From NCBI GenBank assembly GCA_024654525.1, contig JANLHI010000030.1:80437-144436 (forward strand): a stretch of DNA of 64,000 bases. The letters are read 5' to 3'. The translations under genes and the position numbers were made by a program. A model generated the notes under the pieces. That model was not told the origin of the DNA, made no database searches, and saw only the letters and a list, made by a program, of their open reading frames with translations. Positions 15,274-55,822 of this stretch are shown piece after piece; positions within the stretch are counted from its first letter, which is position 1; each line of letters begins with the position of its first letter. The DNA comes from Patescibacteria group bacterium. Its GTDB lineage: Bacteria; Patescibacteriota; Minisyncoccia; UBA6257; 2-01-FULL-56-20.

Positions 15274-15283
15274 GTAACTTTTT

Positions 15284-15317
15284 CCTGCATATACCCGCCA
15301 TGGCGGGTATATGCAGG
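15284..15317. repeat. 34-bp perfect palindrome cctGCATATACccGCCATGGCggGTATATGCagg (copy A), 25 bp upstream of the PaaX-like gene
   Basis: Perfect inverted repeat centred on CCATGG; second copy at 15912..15941 with symmetric compensatory changes. Confidence 0.8.
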
Positions 15318-15324
15318 AAAAAAA

Positions 15325-15341: not shown

Positions 15342-15890
15342 ATGTCACGAGGACCTGGGAAAATTCAGAAGAGAGTATTATTACTACTTCAAGCAGGAAT
15401 AGCGCTTTCACTTTCGATATCTCCGCAACGGCAGTTAAGGGTTTTAAAAGGGATGCATAAGGAATGGAAAAAGATTGATAGTGAGGTACTATCTCGTTCT
15501 ATTCAAGCGCTCTACCAGAGTAAGCTGGTGAGTTTCCATGAACGAGGAGAGAAAGTTGATATGGTGCTTTCAAAAGAAGGGGAGAAGAAAGTTCTTACGT
15601 ATGCTATTGATAATATTTCGGTGAAGAAGCCCGTGCGTTGGGATGGGAAATGGAGGATTGTACTGTTTGATATACCGAAAGATGAAAAAAAAGCCAGAGA
15701 AGCGTTTCGTTCTCATTTATATCGTTTTGGATTTCGTATGTTGCAAAAAAGTGTATTTGTATTTCCTTATCCCTGCGATGACGAGATTGATTTTCTTGTT
15801 GAATGCTACGAATTACAACGATATGTAAGAAGGATTGTTGCAGATGATATAGATAACGGGTTACACCTCAAGAAAATATTTAATGTATAA
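15342..15890 (+). CDS. PaaX-family transcriptional regulator, short form (winged HTH plus a PaaX-like central domain)
   Basis: 182 aa; the N-terminal wHTH (ALYQSKLVSFHERGEKVDMVLSKEG) and WDGKWRIVLFDIPKDEKKAREAFRSHLYRFGFRMLQKSVFVFP match the PaaX W.G.W..V.F..P...R..R..LR..L...GF..L...VW..P block. Confidence 0.5.
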   Translation: MSRGPGKIQKRVLLLLQAGIALSLSISPQRQLRVLKGMHKEWKKIDSEVLSRSIQALYQSKLVSFHERGEKVDMVLSKEGEKKVLTYAIDNISVKKPVRWDGKWRIVLFDIPKDEKKAREAFRSHLYRFGFRMLQKSVFVFPYPCDDEIDFLVECYELQRYVRRIVADDIDNGLHLKKIFNV

Positions 15891-15911
15891 GTAGTTGTCA
15901 TGGATTGCGGT

Positions 15912-15941
15912 CGCATATACTTGCCATGGCAAGTATATGCG
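15912..15941. repeat. 30-bp perfect palindrome cGCATATACttGCCATGGCaaGTATATGCg (copy B)
   Basis: Same core as copy A (GCATATAC NN GCCATGGC NN GTATATGC) with cc/gg replaced by tt/aa, so palindromic symmetry is preserved. Confidence 0.8.
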
Positions 15942-15976
15942 GAAAAAAGAAGTGAGATAAAGAGAATTAAATACGG

Positions 15977-44403: not shown

Positions 44404-45081
44404 ATGGAAAAAGAAATTATTTTCGAGAATACGCGTTATGAACGAATTCCTATTCGGACGCACAAAATAAAATTCGGAGAATCGATTATATCGGTACTCG
44501 AAACGTATCTTCCGGCAATTGTTAAGCCGGGAGATTGGCTTGCAATCTCCGAAAAGCTAATCTCGGTTTCTCAGAATAACATCCGACATATTTCCACCGT
44601 ACACGCGGGGATGCTTGCGCGTTTCATTGTGAAGGGAGTTAAAAAATATCCGAACGATGTCGGTTTTTCCCGCCCTGAAAAAATGCAGCTTGTTGTGGAA
44701 TATGCAGGCGTCGTGAGAACTTTTTTTGCGATGAGTATAGGCGCTCTGGGAAAGCTTTTAGGTATAAGGGGAGTCTTTTGGGTGCTTGTCGGATCTCGCG
44801 CGGGAGAAATAGACGGATTTAATCCCGATGCAATGGATCCGTATAAGGACCACGCCGTATTACCTCCGAAAAATCCTGAAAAAGTATGCGCCGACATAGA
44901 ATCTCGGTTCAATATTCCCACAACAATTATCGACGGCAATAATATTAATGTAAAAATAATTTCAATGAGCCCTAAAATGCCGGTCGATAAAAAAAATGCA
45001 CGGCTGTTGTTATTGGATAATCCCATGGGTCAAGACGATGAGATGACACCATTCGTATTGGTAAGGAAGTTACAGGAATAA
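44404..45081 (+). CDS. CofE-like (F420-0:gamma-glutamyl ligase family) domain protein
   Basis: VKPGDWLAISEKLISVSQNNI resembles the CofE/F420-ligase fold motif. Confidence 0.45.
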   Translation: MEKEIIFENTRYERIPIRTHKIKFGESIISVLETYLPAIVKPGDWLAISEKLISVSQNNIRHISTVHAGMLARFIVKGVKKYPNDVGFSRPEKMQLVVEYAGVVRTFFAMSIGALGKLLGIRGVFWVLVGSRAGEIDGFNPDAMDPYKDHAVLPPKNPEKVCADIESRFNIPTTIIDGNNINVKIISMSPKMPVDKKNARLLLLDNPMGQDDEMTPFVLVRKLQE

Positions 45082-45177
45082 GTGCCTACCTACCTGCGCG
45101 AATATATGTACTGTCGTGAAATCTACCTTGTGCGACAGATAGAATTATAAAATAACCCCGGTAAACACTACCTCCCC

Positions 45178-45735
45178 ATGCTTCCCCTAGGACATATTGC
45201 GACAGGATACCTTGTCGGACGCATCGTATCTTTTTATGCGAACGCTCCTTCGGAATATGCGGATTTATTTGTCTTTGGCGGAATTATTGCCGGTACAATA
45301 CCCGATATCGATTTTATTCCTTTTTTTATCAAACATCGAGCTCTGAAGCTTGTCCGAGGTTCTTCTCATCGGAATTATATTACTCATACGCCTGTGTTAT
45401 GGTTCATCCTTGGGCTATGTATCTATTTCTTGAATTATGACAGTCCTGTGCGTTATTTCGGTATTATTCTTTGGTTAGGAACATGGAGTCATTTTCTCGG
45501 TGATTCTCTCGAGTATGGGATTCGCTGGCTGTGGCCTTTTACTAATACATACTATTCCGTTTACCCCAACCCTTCTGCGCCGAAATTAAGCGAAATTGCG
45601 GCTTCCATTCATAGTCCCGAGGGCAGTATCCCCTTTTATTTTGAGTATTTACGCGTGGTATATTTCAAGAGTCGCGTATGTTGGCTTGAATGTTCCGTAA
45701 TAATAATCGCTCTATTTTTCTTTTTTTATATATGA
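45178..45735 (+). CDS. membrane-bound metal-dependent hydrolase (DUF457/YdjM-like)
   Basis: 185 aa; GHIATGYL...PDID...NYITHTPV and the WSHFLGDSLEYGIRW pattern typical of DUF457. Confidence 0.45.
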   Translation: MLPLGHIATGYLVGRIVSFYANAPSEYADLFVFGGIIAGTIPDIDFIPFFIKHRALKLVRGSSHRNYITHTPVLWFILGLCIYFLNYDSPVRYFGIILWLGTWSHFLGDSLEYGIRWLWPFTNTYYSVYPNPSAPKLSEIAASIHSPEGSIPFYFEYLRVVYFKSRVCWLECSVIIIALFFFFYI

Positions 45736-50845: not shown

Positions 50846-52096
50846 TTATCTGAATATTTTCCCGTCGTAGGTATTCTTTATCTCCTCTTTGATAACCTCC
50901 ACCGCTTTATTGAGTTGAGGATCGCGTTTCTTTTCAAAATCTTCCTCGGTGCGTTTCACTTCGATATCGGGAACCAAACCCTTGCCTTCCAATATAGTGC
51001 CGCTCGGAAGCACCCAATGCGCAATGGTAATTTTAAGCGACGAACCATCACGAAGATCCTTCACTTGTTGCACGGTTCCTTTTCCGAAACTTTGTTCTCC
51101 AATAAGTTTGATATTTTTCACATCATGCAATGCACCGGCAAGAATTTCCGATGCCGAAGCAGAACCTCCGTTAATAAGGACTACTACCGGGAAATCGGCA
51201 AGCGCCGCGTTCCCGTTGGCGCGAAGTTCGTCAATAATTCCATTTCTCCCCTCCTCGCTCACCACCACCGTACCACGCGGGAAAAACCATCCCGCAAGAT
51301 CCACCGCGACTTCAAGATATCCTCCTGGATTGTCACGAAGATCAAATATAAGTCCGCGCGCTCCTTGTGCCGCCGCACCCACCACCGCTTGATAGAATAG
51401 TGAATTGGAATTCGTGTTAAAACTGTGAAGTTTGATATATGCGATATCATCCTTTTTCATCTCAAAATCAAGCGTAGGAATAATTATTTTTTTGCGGACT
51501 ATTATTATTTCTTTCGGCTTTTCCCACGATTCGCGGAACATGAGTAAATTCACTTCGGTGCCTTCGGGACCGCGGATAATACGAACCGCATCTTCGACCG
51601 ACATCCCTTCAGTCGAAGTTGTATTTACTTGAAGAATCCTGTCACCCGCTAAAATTCCGGCACGGCTTGCCGGCGTATCTTTAAGCGGTGCAATTACCAC
51701 AAGCTGATTCTTCCGTATACCTAATTCCGCGCCAATACCTCCAAAATGCCCCTGTACGTCCTCTTGGAACTGCTTACTCTCACTTGGCTTAAAGAACGCG
51801 GAATAGGGGTCTCCAAGTGACCCTACAAGCCCTTTAATCGCGCCATATACCTTGTCTTGGGCATCTACCCCATCCTTTTTCAAATATAAGTCGTCAATTG
51901 ATTGCCATGCCTGCCAAAATGTTCCAAAATCAGCCGCGGATTCTTCGTCTCCATGAACGTCATTTACGTCCTTTACAATAATCGTTTTTGGTGTTTCCAC
52001 TCCCACTCTAAAACCCGCGAATGCTCCGCCTCCGAAAAATATTGATGCCAAAAGAATTACACCTATTATGTTGCGAATTGATCGTTTATTGAACAT
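50846..52096 (-). CDS. S41 family C-terminal processing peptidase
   Basis: Signal/TM N-terminus, a PDZ domain, and the S41 catalytic region ([25 protein letters not shown]). Confidence 0.85.
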
Positions 52097-52204
52097 AGTA
52101 TTGAAAGTTTAACAGGAGGACATCATGACTGCAAACCTCATGAAAAAATATGCATATATTCGAATACTCTTTGATATTTTTCGTTTCTCGCATACAATTT
52201 CCTC

Positions 52205-52516
52205 ATGGCGATCGAGACTGCGGAATTCCTTAAAAAGCTTTCTTCAAGGAAGAAGGAGTCTCATGTATATCGAAAATATCAACTCACAGGGCTTGAAATC
52301 GCGGATATTTTGGGGGACCGTGCGCATAAAGCGCTCTATATCAAACTTGCAAAAGAACGAGATGCCGAATTACTCCGTGCGCTCGCAAAAGATATTGCCG
52401 ATAAACCGAACGTGGCAAACAAAGGTGCGTATTTTATGGCATGCCTCGGGAAAATGAAAAATGGGAATGAATTGAAGATAAAAATGCCGGCTACGAGCAT
52501 CAACGAGAAAAAATAA
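52205..52516 (+). CDS. hypothetical protein (103 aa)
   Basis: Protein-like helical composition but no SD; overlapped out of frame by an alternative ORF (52125..52457) that has a strong SD and an implausible Arg/Ser-rich product. Confidence 0.3.
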   Translation: MAIETAEFLKKLSSRKKESHVYRKYQLTGLEIADILGDRAHKALYIKLAKERDAELLRALAKDIADKPNVANKGAYFMACLGKMKNGNELKIKMPATSINEKK

Positions 52517-52550
52517 ATTTTGCATTTTAGTTTTTTAATTTTAAGTTTTC

Positions 52551-53069
52551 ATGTACCTCATCACCAACAAACAAGAATATAAATTTCTTCGGCGTGCACC
52601 GAAAATTTTTGATTTCTCAGCTCACTCTCCCACTAAAATTCAAGAGCTTATCCGAACCATGAAAAAATCCATGCGCGACGTGCATGGTATCGGACTTTCC
52701 GCAAATCAAATCGGTGTTGATATGCAAGTATTTATAGCCGAAGTTCCCGGCACCGGTGGGTCTCTCAAATTTTATGCGGTATTCAACCCAACAATAGAAA
52801 AAATAGGAGATAAAATCGAATTAAGTGAAGAAGGTTGTCTGAGTATTCCGGGAACATACGGAAATGTTCCCCGCGCCACACAGATTACCATTCGCGGGTT
52901 CGACAAGCGTGGGAAGCCGATAAAGATTAAGGCATGGGGACTTCTTGCTCGAGTTTTTCAACATGAAATTGATCACTTAAACGGAAAACTTTTTATTGAT
53001 CACGCAAAGGAAACGTATGAAATGGCGACGTCGGAACGATTAAGAAACAAAGAGCATAAAGATGTATAA
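52551..53069 (+). CDS. def: peptide deformylase
   Basis: GLSANQIGV, EGCLSIPG and HEIDHLNG motifs. Confidence 0.9.
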   Translation: MYLITNKQEYKFLRRAPKIFDFSAHSPTKIQELIRTMKKSMRDVHGIGLSANQIGVDMQVFIAEVPGTGGSLKFYAVFNPTIEKIGDKIELSEEGCLSIPGTYGNVPRATQITIRGFDKRGKPIKIKAWGLLARVFQHEIDHLNGKLFIDHAKETYEMATSERLRNKEHKDV

Positions 53070-53125
53070 CGCATATTCGCATAATTAGTATCATTCGCAC
53101 GCATTAGTATATTAGCATCGCGCTT

Positions 53126-54001
53126 ATGAATTTCGCTTTCTTCGGCTCTCCTCAATTCGCCGCAATAGTACTCGATAAGCTTATCGCGGGCGGCTTTGTA
53201 CCATCGGTCGTCATTTGCAATCCCGACCGCCCGGTGGGACGAAAAAAAATAGTGACCGCACCGGCGGTGAAACAGCTCGTAGCAAAGAGTAAAAAGGAAA
53301 TTGAAATTCTCCAACCGGAACGTCTGGATGCCACTTCAACCTTAAAGCTCAAAGCTCAAAGCTATGATATTTTCATTGTCGCCGCCTATTCCAAAATAAT
53401 TCCAAAAGATATCATCGCGCTTCCCCGTTTCGGCGTGATAGGTGTTCACCCATCGCTTCTCCCTCGCCACCGCGGCGCAACACCCATCCAGACCGCAATA
53501 CTCGAAGGCGACGGGGAAACGGGCACTACGCTATTTCTTATGGATGAGAAAATAGATCATGGGGCGATTATCGCGCAAGAAAGGTTGAACCTTTCGCATT
53601 CCCAAGGTTCAACCTTGATGGATCTCGATTACCAGGCACTGGAAGCCAAACTTTCGGAACTTTCGGGCGATTTACTTGTAAAAACACTTCCCGATTTTGT
53701 TGCGGGAAAAATAAAACCGGCACCGCAAGACGATTCAAAGGCAACGCTCACCAAAAAATTCACCACGCAGGATGCATTCGTGGATGAAAAAGATGTTATT
53801 GCTGCAGAATCTGGCAAGGTTCAACCTTGCCAGATGGCCGTAATTGAACGCAAAATCCGCGCCTTCAGCCATGAACCGGGTGCGTGGACTCTGCGAAACG
53901 GAAAACGGGTAAAACTCCTGGAAGCGGAAATCCGCGAGGGGAGGTTGGTGCTCAAAAAAATTCAGATTGAAGGAGGGAAGTCGAGAATTATCCAAGGTTA
54001 A
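53126..54001 (+). CDS. fmt: methionyl-tRNA formyltransferase
   Basis: N-terminal formyltransferase domain (FFGSPQFA..., IGVHPSLLPRHRGATPIQ); the C-terminal domain contains several copies of the AAGGTTNAACCTT palindrome. Confidence 0.9.
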   Translation: MNFAFFGSPQFAAIVLDKLIAGGFVPSVVICNPDRPVGRKKIVTAPAVKQLVAKSKKEIEILQPERLDATSTLKLKAQSYDIFIVAAYSKIIPKDIIALPRFGVIGVHPSLLPRHRGATPIQTAILEGDGETGTTLFLMDEKIDHGAIIAQERLNLSHSQGSTLMDLDYQALEAKLSELSGDLLVKTLPDFVAGKIKPAPQDDSKATLTKKFTTQDAFVDEKDVIAAESGKVQPCQMAVIERKIRAFSHEPGAWTLRNGKRVKLLEAEIREGRLVLKKIQIEGGKSRIIQG

Positions 54002-54029
54002 ACCTTAAGAACCCCAAAGGTTTAATCTT
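53579..54029. repeat. cluster of five copies of the 13-bp palindrome AAGGTT-N-AACCTT (53581, 53604, 53816, 53994; a degenerate copy at 54017)
   Basis: Exact copies aaggttgaacctt, aaggttcaacctt (two), aaggttaaacctt and aaggtttaatctt; the copy at 53811..53833 is a perfect 23-nt palindrome; the first four lie inside the fmt reading frame in different codon phases, and the fourth contains the stop codon. Confidence 0.8.
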
Positions 54030-54039
54030 GGAATCAACA

Positions 54040-54598
54040 GGAAACAGGTTAGAGGTTTTAGATATATTTTAAAAATGGAAAAGCCGGAACACTTGGAAGG
54101 TGCCCCGGCTCTCGTTGGTGCCAGTCCCTCGAGAGGACCGGCGTTAGTGATCGAATGGGGTAATCACCCCGTATTCCTCATTTTGGCGCCGATGAGAAAT
54201 CCCTGTGTTCGTCTCACAGGAGGGAACGGAAACATTCGAGACGCGCAAACCTTGCCGTCCCGATAATCGTGCTAGCTGCTACCCTCAAGCAGTATTAGCA
54301 CTAGGATATCTATTTTTAACGAAGGGTCTCGAGTCCTTCGGTATTGCCCCATATTCTTACTACAAGCGACATCCATACTTGTAGAATATGAAAAGGTTGG
54401 GCCTTTACTTGGTAGAGAACGGTAAAGTGAAAGAACCCTCTAATTCTATCACTCCGACCCCATATGCTATGAGGTCTCTCCTTCCAAGAAAATCAATGAA
54501 CAAATGCTCATCACGTATGCCACAAGGAGTGACACTGCAATGGCAAGATGTATCATAGCACACTCCACAAATACTGTCAACTCTCTATTGGATAGGGG
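54040..54598. ncRNA. candidate structured non-coding RNA region (class undetermined)
   Basis: About 560 bp with no credible ORF, visibly higher GC than flanking DNA, and dense stable hairpins and pseudoknot-compatible pairings (for example ccggctctcg...cgagaggaccgg, gtgat..ggggtaatcacccc, gtgctagctgc...gcagtattagcac, catattc..ctacaag..cttgtagaatatg); a 9-bp long-range complement (cttggaagg at 54091 and ccttccaag at 54484) is compatible with a closing helix; strand not determined. Confidence 0.3.
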
Positions 54599-55243
54599 TT
54601 ATTTTGAATTTTCGAGCGATTTTGCCACCTCTTTCCAGTTGATTACACTCCACCAGTTTTCTATATATTCCGCACGGCGATTTTGATATTTCAAATAATA
54701 GGCATGTTCCCATACATCAATCCCAAGAATCGGACGTGCGCCTGTTGATATCGGGTTATCCTGGTTTGGCGTACTCATAATGAAGAGTTTCCCGTTTCCC
54801 GCAAGCCACACCCATCCACTCCCAAAAAGTCCCGAGGCTATTTTTGTGAATTCCGTTTTAAATGCATTAAAACTTCCAAATGATTTTTCAATTCGTACTG
54901 CACACTCCCCTTGCGGCACATTTGCCGCGCTCCCTGCGTTCGGCTTCATATTTTTCCAAAAAAACGAGTGGTTGAAATGCCCTCCTCCATGATTGCGCAC
55001 CGCGGTGCGAATATCCGCAGGAACCGCATCAAGGTTTGAAAGCAACGATTCAAGCGCCTCAATTTCGGGTTTTCCCGCCATAGTTTCGGCAAAGGAAGGG
55101 TGCTTTTCAATCGCTTCATTCAACTTTGAGACGTACGCCTGGTGGTGCTTTGCGTGATGCACTTCCATGGTACTTGCATCAATATGTGGCTCAAGCGCGT
55201 CGTAGCTATAAGGAAGTTCTGGCAACGAAAAAATTTTATCCAT
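54599..55243 (-). CDS. sodA: Fe/Mn superoxide dismutase
   Basis: [32 protein letters not shown] and the C-terminal DVWEHAYY motif. Confidence 0.9.
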
Positions 55244-55305
55244 AGAAATAAGTGGGAGTGTTTTTGTTATTTATTTATCAATTGCCGTTATAAGTTGTCT
55301 TTGTA

Positions 55306-55413
55306 TTATTGCCCAATAAATATAAGCGCCGCGCTGGGACCGATAAGCCCGACAACGATAATTATTGCAAGCAACCATACAAGGACTTTTTTAATTTTCT
55401 TTGTCTTTGTCAT
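55306..55413 (-). CDS. candidate small membrane peptide (35 aa, MTKTKKIKKVLVWLLAIIIVVGLIGPSAALIFIGQ)
   Basis: Basic N-terminus plus a single TM helix; GGAGG lies directly (1 nt) upstream of the ATG, which is suboptimal spacing; below the ORF-track size cutoff. Confidence 0.2.
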   Translation of the reverse strand: MTKTKKIKKVLVWLLAIIIVVGLIGPSAALIFIGQ

Positions 55414-55518
55414 GCCTCCATTATACACATTGAGGATATTTCAACCATGTGAATAGGGGTTGAGAAACCTGCTCTAACGTGTTAAATTCCCTAGGTGTTT
55501 CGCGCGCACAACAGATTT

Positions 55519-55589
55519 TGGGGGGTCGTCTAGCGGTAGGACATCGCCCTTTGGAGGCGAGTACCGGGGTTCGAATCCCTGCCCCCCAG
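55519..55589 (+). tRNA. tRNA-Gln (anticodon TTG)
   Basis: U1-A72 acceptor pair and G73 (bacterial tRNA-Gln identity features), D stem gtct/ggac, perfect anticodon stem tcgcc/ggcga with loop cTTTGga, T arm cgggg-ttcgaat-ccctg. Confidence 0.8.
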
Positions 55590-55604
55590 CATGAACATTG
55601 GATG

Positions 55605-55622
55605 GTGGCTGTCCCCTTTTCT
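55605..55622. repeat. 18-bp direct repeat gtggctgtccccttttct, copy 1 (15 nt downstream of tRNA-Gln)
   Basis: Exact second copy at 55926..55943; 20 of 21 positions match when extended. Confidence 0.7.
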
Positions 55623-55656
55623 CAAATAAAAAAGGAACGAAGCTTGCTTCGTTCCT
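55623..55656 (-). terminator. rho-independent terminator (minus strand) for the small ORF at 55682..55822
   Basis: ggaacgaag-cttg-cttcgttcc hairpin followed on the minus strand by ttttttattt. Confidence 0.6.
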
Positions 55657-55681
55657 CGTGAAAACTTTTTGATCTGATTCG

Positions 55682-55822
55682 TTACCTGAGACGTAAATCA
55701 AGCCACGTCATAAATGCAGCGATTATCACGCATATCGCGAGAGCGAGTGCTGCATTTTTTGGATTTTTCCAAAGAGCAAGGAACTCCCCGATGCGACGAA
55801 CAACGTACTGAAACATTTTCAT
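55682..55822 (-). CDS. candidate small hydrophobic protein (46 aa, MKMFQYVVRRIGEFLALWKNPKNAALALAICVIIAAFMTWLDLRLR)
   Basis: AGGAAGG SD 4 nt upstream of the ATG and a strong terminator immediately downstream; one predicted TM helix; not in the ORF track (under 60 aa). Confidence 0.35.
   Translation of the reverse strand: MKMFQYVVRRIGEFLALWKNPKNAALALAICVIIAAFMTWLDLRLR

Follow-up and report, generated by a model that had tools for sequence, protein, structure and literature searches.

Palindromes in the fmt gene of a Patescibacteria genome are probably REPIN-like repeats akin to those beside a RAYT-like Y1 transposase family

Results

Inverted doublets of a 13-nt palindrome in fmt

We examined a cluster of short palindromes in fmt, the gene for methionyl-tRNA formyltransferase (Fmt), on contig JANLHI010000030.1 of a Patescibacteria group bacterium. 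The whole stretch of 64,000 nucleotides that was analysed is called the window below, and all positions are counted from its first letter. The 13-mer AAGGTTNAACCTT is present in four exact copies that start at 53581, 53604, 53816 and 53994, with a one-mismatch copy at 54017 and a two-mismatch copy at 54393, all of them within 53581-54405. The expected number of exact copies is 0.01 per window, and none of 100 dinucleotide-preserving shuffles reached four. No further exact copy was found elsewhere in the 64 kb, and a scan of the window for RAGG-N5-CCTY palindromes returned none outside the fmt cluster. The original prediction, which was made from the sequence alone, had the coordinates of the first five copies, their excess over chance and the lack of other exact copies right; it had missed the decayed copy AAGGTTGGGCCTT at 54393. 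We propose that these palindromes are probably relatives of the repetitive extragenic palindromes (REPs) and of the REP doublets forming hairpins (REPINs), that they belong to the Patescibacteria, or candidate phyla radiation (CPR), and that they have settled in permissive loops and at the 3' end of fmt.

Table 1 Positions of fmt and of the palindromic elements in the window
Feature	Position	Strand	Details
fmt, methionyl-tRNA formyltransferase, intact, 291 codons, host of the elements	53126-54001	+	Open reading frame (ORF) and its translation
Doublet A, REPIN-like	53581-53616		Arm 1 53581-53593 AAGGTTGAACCTT, spacer 53594-53603 TCGCATTCCC, arm 2 53604-53616 AAGGTTCAACCTT
Solo element, perfect 27-nt palindrome ATCTGGCAAGGTTCAACCTTGCCAGAT	53809-53835		Core AAGGTTCAACCTT 53816-53828
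Doublet B, 16-bp stem	53991-54032		Arm 1 53994-54006 AAGGTTAAACCTT, spacer 54007-54016 AAGAACCCCA, arm 2 54017-54029 AAGGTTTAATCTT
Probable decayed solo copy AAGGTTGGGCCTT, two A-to-G transitions	54393-54405		Weak: two-mismatch match, judged by its nearness to the cluster

Five separate copies had been counted originally. All five are present, but four of them form two inverted doublets, 53581/53604 (doublet A) and 53994/54017 (doublet B). Each doublet is 36 nt long and consists of a 13-nt arm, a 10-nt spacer and a reverse-complement arm, with 23 bp from start to start. The arm centres are G/C in doublet A and A/T in doublet B. The mismatch of the 54017 copy, base 54026, stands as G.T against a G of arm 1 and is the single mispair in the stem of doublet B. 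As single-stranded DNA (ssDNA), doublet A is predicted to form a 13-bp hairpin of -12.3 kcal/mol on either strand (z about -5), and doublet B one long hairpin of -12.7 kcal/mol on the plus strand and -10.9 kcal/mol on the minus strand, the z values of the doublets being about -5 to -6. The palindrome around 53816 is perfect, as had been noted, but it measures 27 nt rather than the 23 nt first given; as ssDNA it would form a 12-bp hairpin (-13.2 and -12.9 kcal/mol on the two strands, z -7 and -6.3). No direct repeats or target-site duplications were found around the window copies, where the palindrome continues into the flanks instead, and a classical miniature inverted-repeat transposable element (MITE) was rejected on these grounds.

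The host gene appears to be unharmed by the elements. Fmt homologs carry the domains PF00551 and PF02911, and the Fmt of the window keeps every invariant column of a 26-sequence alignment. It is identical to the NCBI entry of a Patescibacteria group bacterium metagenome-assembled genome (MAG), while its next relatives, Liptonbacteria among them, are 62-64% identical. The exact copies are translated in three codon phases and encode ERLNL, QGSTL, KVQPC and QG-stop, the fourth with the TAA stop of the gene, all as originally described. Doublet A encodes ERLNL-SHSQ-GSTL, which includes an 8-residue insertion in Fmt; inserts had been thought worth seeking in an ortholog alignment, and besides the window this one is common to P0002 and P0004 only. 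Doublet B supplies the last two codons of fmt and the stop codon at 53999-54001. The placement of the elements at the 3' end of fmt was thus correct as far as the stop is concerned, but the copies reach from codon 152 to the stop, that is, over the second half of the gene.

An AlphaFold model of the window Fmt (pLDDT 86.8) puts doublet A (site 1) in a loop, in which residues 159-163 have a pLDDT below 50, the solo copy (site 2, KVQPC) in the loop between helices 221-229 and 234-246, and doublet B at the C-terminus. By alignment and model, the insertion sites are indel-rich, low-confidence loops or the terminus of the protein. On the best reading, at least three insertions into fmt have occurred, at a surface loop, an inter-helix loop and the C-terminus, and the protein remains intact since extra residues are tolerated there.

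Pairing of the arms is kept among fmt orthologs

A counterpart of doublet A occupies the same fmt codons with the same spacing in two groups of relatives, loci L001-L004 (Fmt 64% identical) and L005-L006 (62% identical), which were retrieved as the DNA of P0002 and P0004. Across the window and both relative lineages the specified arm bases at site 1 are identical at 24 of 24 positions, and the centres covary, being A/T in L001-L004 and G/C in L005-L006 and in the window. The third codon positions of the three site-1 genes are 44-46% identical, about half of the identical amino acids use the same codon, and the spacers differ at 4-6 of 10 positions among the three lineages.

The doublet-A insertion is missing from L125, L126 and L127, which carry variant doublets at other fmt positions. 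At the site of the window's solo copy these are GAGGTTTAACCTC-9-GAGGTTAAACCTC, AAGGCTTAGCCTT-9-AAGGCTAAGCCTT and GAGGCTCAACCTC-6-GAGGTTGAGCCTC, and L127 has AAGGTTCGACCTT-10-AAGGTCGAACCTT at an additional fmt site. All four show compensatory changes between their arms. In GAGGCTCAACCTC/GAGGTTGAGCCTC and AAGGTTCGACCTT/AAGGTCGAACCTT the single arms are not palindromic, and arm 2 is the exact reverse complement of arm 1; arms of this kind, not self-palindromic yet exact mutual reverse complements, were seen in L126, L127 and L180. Because the arms lose their own palindrome yet stay complementary to each other, what is kept is the pairing between arms.

The window's solo copy aligns with one arm of the variant doublets in L125, L126 and L127, and family members are found at four different fmt sites among the relatives. 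Related spacers occur at different sites, namely AAGAACCCCA in doublet B of the window, AAGAATTCCA at site 1 of L001 and AAAAATTCCC at site 3 of L127, which suggests that whole 36-nt units were copied between fmt sites.

Doublets are dispersed among CPR genomes

A genome scan with the pattern AAGGTTNAACCTT-N(4-30)-AAGGTTNAACCTT over one genome per GTDB species (596 Gb) yielded at least 118 doublet loci, compared with about 0.1 expected by chance. The label of 93 of the at least 118 loci is a CPR one, and the classes represented are Paceibacteria, Kaiser-, Lipton-, Taylor-, Vogel-, Wolfe-, Nomura- and Moraniibacteria, Saccharibacteria and Microgenomates. Some MAGs hold 3-5 doublet loci each, these numbers being lower bounds. 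The scanned loci contain 22 further solo copies versus about 0.05 expected, many of them with an extended palindrome of their own like that of the window's solo copy. No doublets were found in 2.9 million viral contigs. An uptake-signal role was rejected on density, with few copies per genome and none elsewhere in the 64 kb.

CPR-type doublets were also observed in MAGs labelled Gammaproteobacteria (TPA_asm uncultured; L008, L011, L012, L015, L020, L028, L039 and others), Bdellovibrionales or Bathyarchaeia (L067). Two loci with Gammaproteobacteria-type labels, L012 and L028, also hold the CPR-type Y1 gene described below, and the non-CPR labels may be wrong or the contigs mis-binned. The counts leave out a few non-CPR matches that are seemingly unrelated and a tandem array in a Polyangiaceae MAG (L062, 2696-2918). 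The latter is GC-rich, with a period of about 42 nt, one AAGGTTNAACCTT per unit and mostly non-complementary centres, and is seemingly a repeat of another sort in which the 13-mer also occurs.

The two arm centres are complementary in 117 of 132 doublets. Spacers range from 4 to 30 nt, with 10-11 nt the commonest length; the palindrome often continues into the flanks and the spacer, and some spacer types recur. As read from these sequences, the unit of the family is a 13-nt near-palindrome with an AAGG...CCTT foot, usually arranged as an inverted doublet with a 4-30-nt spacer and also present as solo copies.

About half of the doublets (64 of 126) lie within ORFs of at least 100 aa. The 54 host ORFs that were scanned match 115 different Pfam families, the most frequent being PheT with 8. 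Intragenic doublets are read in all three frames, with the stop-capable frame the rarest, and elements that overlap stop codons were seen repeatedly in other loci as in fmt. In pheT, six lineages (L014, L039, L054, L067, L096 and L097) carry a doublet in the same inter-domain linker. Their PheT proteins are 29-48% identical to that of L007, which served as the alignment reference. The doublet is about 241-262 nt from the start codon in all except L067, where the distance is 569 nt by its called ORF. These doublets use three frames, have differing centres and spacers and encode R[FL]NL, G[SL]T[FL] or KV[KEQ]P. The PheT genes of L069 and L083 have no doublet at the linker. Two further positions recur: the leuS start codon follows a doublet at a distance of 37-51 nt in L030, L042, L074, L102 and L121, and in L029 and L068 a doublet lies 4 nt past the lepA stop codon. 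The leuS-upstream doublets of L030 and L102 overlap the end of the preceding ORF, and the spacers and flanks of L030, L102 and L121 are closely related.

A Y1 transposase gene is flanked by the repeats

To find recurrent neighbours, the ORFs within 3 kb of doublets were clustered. The most recurrent neighbour is a protein of about 230 aa, which is encoded at 14 of 117 loci with a median distance of 52 nt between motif and gene; the remaining 103 loci have no such gene within 8 kb. The protein matches PF01797 (Y1_Tnp, described in Pfam as 'Transposase IS200 like') above the cut-off with an E value of 7e-8. Its best NCBIfam match is NF047646, the REP-associated tyrosine transposase (RAYT), with an E value of 3e-12. 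The motifs YH..NRG, NHFH (the HUH motif) and Y..N (the tyrosine motif) are invariant. An AlphaFold model of the protein (pLDDT 88.9) has its best fold match in 4ER8, the Escherichia coli TnpA-REP with a REP hairpin (E 1.6e-6, TM 0.66 on the target). The IS608 TnpA matches with an E value of 3.4e-4, and the IS608, ISHp608 and ISDra2 transposases all rank behind 4ER8. Searches of the PDB by sequence gave weak matches, with E values of 0.06-0.5 for TnpA-REP and IS200-type proteins alike. The protein is longer than the solved TnpA chains (about 125-165 aa). RAYT (TnpA-REP) is thus its closest relative as judged by the best matches of sequence family and modelled fold, and these matches are suggestive of membership in the RAYT clade.

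Of the 14 Y1 loci, 11 have a doublet no more than about 100 nt from the gene, and about nine of the 14 (L013, L071 and others) have elements on both sides. In L071 an element encodes the C-terminus and the stop codon of the Y1 protein. GTA follows some arms in L013 only. The exact 13-mer was also observed inside the Y1 coding sequence in L028 (2170), L032 (5467), L086 (7877), L128 and L192, near nt 175-181 or nt 490 of the gene. In the MAG JACOZG01 the gene is present at least twice. The neighbour clusters of the loci examined included no tnpB partner.

The Y1 family comprises at least 7603 proteins at E<=1e-10, and every named source is a CPR lineage. In a motif-blind sample, 80 metagenomic loci were seeded by the Y1 protein alone, and 75 of the genes had enough flank to be analysed. 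In 64 of these 75, a sequence of at least 11 nt is common to the 5' and 3' flanks, and it is nearly always a palindrome of the AAGG-N5-CCTT type, such as AAGGACTGTCCTT, AAGGCCAGGCCTT, AAGGTCTGACCTT, GAGGTCCGACCTC or AAGGTTCAACCTT. The 13-mer AAGGTTNAACCTT itself (with at most one mismatch) flanks 8 of the 80 genes. The conserved part of the flank repeats is the AAGG/CCTT foot. The flank palindromes thus form a repeat superfamily whose sequence changes with the transposase lineage, and AAGGTTNAACCTT is one of its alleles.

Surroundings of fmt and other features of the window

The gene order around fmt is kept in the window (50846-55243), L001, L005 and L125-L127: a ctpB-like protease gene on the minus strand, a small ORF, def, fmt, a variable gap and sodA on the minus strand. 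Among these loci the fmt-sodA gap ranges from 45 to 710 bp. In the window the gap is 600 bp and may encode, on its minus strand, a structured RNA about 475 nt long (54070-54580). Its putative promoter is near consensus (TTGACA-17-TATGAT with TG, 54580 to 54552, minus strand), and it would end at a strong terminator of the intrinsic type at 54113 to 54079, behind which comes a T-run; the z of its folding energy is -4.9. Both the promoter segment and the terminator segment are kept in L001, L005 and L125. The candidate RNA had no Rfam match on either strand and was not called as a tmRNA by ARAGORN. A gathering scan with Rfam 15 yielded three tRNAs in the whole window and nothing else, and a permissive scan of 53000-55700 returned only a tRNA-Gln at E values up to 5. 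A known RNA family was therefore rejected, there being no covariance-model match in the fmt region beyond tRNA.

The GC skew of the window turns from positive to negative at about 45000-45500, while plus-strand genes continue to about 49 kb. A replication terminus has this pattern; here it would lie some 8.5 kb away from the fmt elements. The sites parS, matS and dif and those of terminator proteins were considered because of this skew flip and were rejected, since the motif is dispersed in other genomes, is coding in all frames and flanks a transposase gene.

A general inverted-repeat scan of the window found, besides the fmt cluster, one other palindrome family, which is unrelated. Its members at 15278-15323 and 15911-15942 have the form GCATATAC-nn-GCCATGGC-nn-GTATATGC, each beside A/T runs, and bracket an ORF (15342-15890) that matches PaaX_M and Cas2-like domains. 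They may be bidirectional terminators or another gene-flanking repeat.

Discussion

Our proposal of REP/REPIN-like repeats in fmt is based on the anatomy of the repeat, the conservation and covariation of its arms among orthologs, its dispersal in CPR genomes, its intragenic location in three frames and its position on the flanks of Y1 genes. Among the explanations first offered for the cluster was the repeated insertion of a miniature element into a poorly constrained part of Fmt, and it is this one that has held up: the elements sit in loops and at the C-terminus, occupy four fmt sites in relatives and are dispersed through CPR genomes beside a Y1 gene. Binding sites for a dimeric DNA-binding protein or a recombinase had been offered as well. 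That idea survives only loosely, in that the likely partner is an HUH/Y1 transposase that would read an ssDNA hairpin and not a dimeric regulator of duplex DNA.

By analogy with E. coli TnpA-REP and with IS200/IS605 elements, the Y1 protein may mobilise the repeats. The transposase would bind the hairpin with the AAGG...CCTT foot in ssDNA, for example on the lagging-strand template, and would cleave and rejoin DNA near the hairpin, whereby the doublet would be copied or moved. The conserved CCTT is a candidate cleavage site. The fmt cluster, 0.45-0.8 kb long, may have arisen by local re-insertion, in repeated events seeded by a resident copy. TnpA-REP also cuts at numerous CT sites in a region of more than 400 nt that surrounds a resident bacterial interspersed mosaic element (BIME) (PMC3333891), which offers a reason for such local clustering. 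Only insertions in permissive loops or at gene ends would survive; this would also explain the recurrent pheT linker. With doublets translated in each of the three frames, no peptide is conserved, and the element is read as DNA rather than as peptide. The source genome presumably has, or once had, a cognate transposase.

Several observations weigh against this proposal. A search of the 64-kb window by tblastn with 14 family members found no Y1/RAYT homolog (best E 0.18). The family is limited in the window to about 0.8 kb around fmt and is not dispersed, and exact doublets per genome number in single digits (lower bounds) versus hundreds for classical REPs. Neither GTAG/CTAC nor CGTC adjoins any window copy. 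The score of the Y1 protein against NF047646, 46.6 bits, is under the RAYT cut-off of 80. Finally, exact site-1 arms across lineages with saturated synonymous sites exceed what a purely selfish, decaying element would predict. This conservation hints at selection or homogenisation beyond the model as it stands: the arms may be under selection, they may be homogenised by the transposase, or the site may have been occupied repeatedly.

We considered whether the repeats could instead be the ends of an autonomous IS200/IS605-type element and its MITE-like derivatives, comparable to palindrome-associated transposable elements (PATEs), with a hairpin-tnpA-hairpin unit as what moves. This explanation invokes the same Y1/HUH chemistry on ssDNA hairpins but another lifestyle than that of a domesticated REP-RAYT system, and we regard it as rather unlikely. 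It agrees with the naming of the Pfam family, with the RAYT equivalog cut-off that the protein does not reach, with the two or more gene copies in JACOZG01, with the same repeat bracketing the gene on both sides in the manner of an insertion sequence and with the lack of target duplications, which is expected of IS200/IS605. However, the best family (NF047646) and fold (4ER8) matches are to RAYT rather than to the TnpA of IS200/IS608, and the protein is long for such a TnpA. A moving hairpin-gene-hairpin unit also fits poorly with the 103 of 117 repeat loci that have no Y1 gene nearby and with the lack of matches in the 2.9 million viral contigs. The persistence of orthologous copies over deep divergence is a better fit to vertically inherited, REPIN-like populations.

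A further possibility, to which we assign a similarly modest weight, is that the doublets are more than tolerated selfish DNA and are kept by selection at the nucleotide level in or beside essential translation genes (fmt, the pheT linker of six lineages and the region upstream of leuS). They would then be cis-elements that work as DNA hairpins together with the RAYT-like protein, for example as a domesticated replication-fork system or a generator of loop variation, and would represent a REP-RAYT partnership within the coding sequence of ultra-small genomes.

It is improbable that the hairpins are cis-regulatory RNA structures of the fmt mRNA that act in stability, pausing or 3'-end formation and are kept by selection on the transcript. 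That one site has conserved arms in orthologs of 62-64% identity, despite saturated synonymous sites, could be taken in this sense, as could the one mismatch of doublet B, which is a G.T (G.U in RNA) on the sense strand, and the position of this doublet at the fmt 3' end, where a search for plus-strand intrinsic terminators found none. Hairpins acting on the fmt 3' end had also been among the original suggestions. The 51 intragenic doublets speak against it: their mispairs are G.T in 27 cases versus A.C in 36, and the more stable fold is that of the sense strand in 26 versus the antisense strand in 24. The mRNA explanation was set aside because there is no sense-strand bias. Moreover, the repeats are found between genes as well as within members of more than 100 unrelated gene families, they flank a transposase gene, and Rfam gave no match. 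An RNA role may exist as a secondary effect of some copies.

Operators of a dimeric regulator that binds duplex DNA, or sites of a conventional site-specific recombinase, are less probable still. In their favour, each arm in the window is a 13-bp palindrome, and the paired sites are 23 bp, or about two helical turns, apart. The sites are nevertheless found inside the coding regions of many unrelated genes and in every frame, their spacing varies from 4 to 30 nt, and the palindrome runs on into variable flanks and spacers. The centres covary between the arms (117 of 132), and in L126, L127 and L180 the arms are non-palindromic yet mutually complementary, contrary to what one would expect of a dimeric operator. 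Nothing speaks for chance or codon coincidence except that the encoded peptides are ordinary; it is refuted by the counts of copies in the window and of doublets and solo copies elsewhere, and orthologs that encode the same peptides without palindromes are the opposite of what was seen: the DNA is kept, the spacer peptide varies and pheT uses three frames.

To our knowledge, REP/REPIN-RAYT systems have been described mainly from Proteobacteria and as strictly extragenic, and among the papers searched none was found that links REP/RAYT to CPR/Patescibacteria. If our proposal of REP/REPIN-like repeats is true, a very large RAYT-like family with its cognate AAGG...CCTT hairpins would extend this kind of element to ultra-small, gene-dense genomes. 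With intergenic space scarce, the repeats would live in essential genes and in any frame, in parallel to the Rickettsia palindromic elements (RPEs) but with an identifiable enzyme partner. CPR proteins have a class of short insertions specific to single lineages, which would thereby be explained along with some of the stop codons, and the proposal also provides a simple sequence signature by which such insertions can be annotated.

Comparison with known systems

REPINs consist of two inverted REPs with a variable spacer between them; they form ssDNA hairpins, show compensatory changes, are accompanied by decayed singlets and occur beside a RAYT gene (PMC3116915). The CPR repeats resemble the REPs, BIMEs and REPINs of E. 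coli and Pseudomonas in their inverted doublets with a variable linker and a predicted single ssDNA hairpin, in the compensatory changes between arms and in the solo copies beside doublets. They are also alike in the HUH/Y1 gene that is bracketed by repeats, which is seen in relatives and not in the window, and in a repeat sequence that differs with the transposase lineage. TnpA-REP of E. coli binds the REP hairpin only in ssDNA and cleaves between C and T (PMC3333891); the CPR foot contains CCT, and the E. coli enzyme cleaves between CC and T (PMC3333891). On the other hand, the CPR unit is far smaller, with a 13-nt arm and a 36-nt doublet compared with doublet spacings of about 71-110 bp in Pseudomonas fluorescens (PMC3116915), and its arms are near-perfect odd palindromes without a GTAG/CGTC tag. 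Nor are the repeats extragenic, since four window copies lie in fmt and about half of those elsewhere are intragenic and translated. The host is a CPR bacterium, the copy number per genome is apparently low, and the transposase, at about 230 aa, scores under the RAYT equivalog cut-off.

The relatives also share features with IS200/IS605 elements such as IS608 and ISDra2, namely the Y1/HUH fold and motifs, sub-terminal hairpins on both sides of the gene, and the lack of classical terminal inverted repeats and of target duplications (PMC3333891). They differ by having the same palindrome on both flanks, a longer protein that is closer to TnpA-REP in fold and family, and a predominance of dispersed solo doublets. 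TIGR-Tas arrays consist of tandem 36-nt units next to the gene for a Nop-domain Tas protein and are common in CPR (PMC12045711). They were considered because of the 36-nt unit and the CPR host and were rejected, as the doublets are isolated rather than tandem and have no recurrent Nop-like neighbour or Tas.

The RPEs, as outlined in a review (PMC10969869, citing Ogata et al. 2000, 2002), are likewise palindromes that sit in frame in housekeeping genes of a reduced genome, occur in many unrelated genes and add a peptide that is tolerated. They are about 150 bp long (about 100-150) and encode a conserved peptide in one frame, compared with 13-36 nt and three frames for the CPR unit. That review (PMC10969869) names no transposase partner for the RPEs, whereas the CPR repeats are linked to a Y1 gene.

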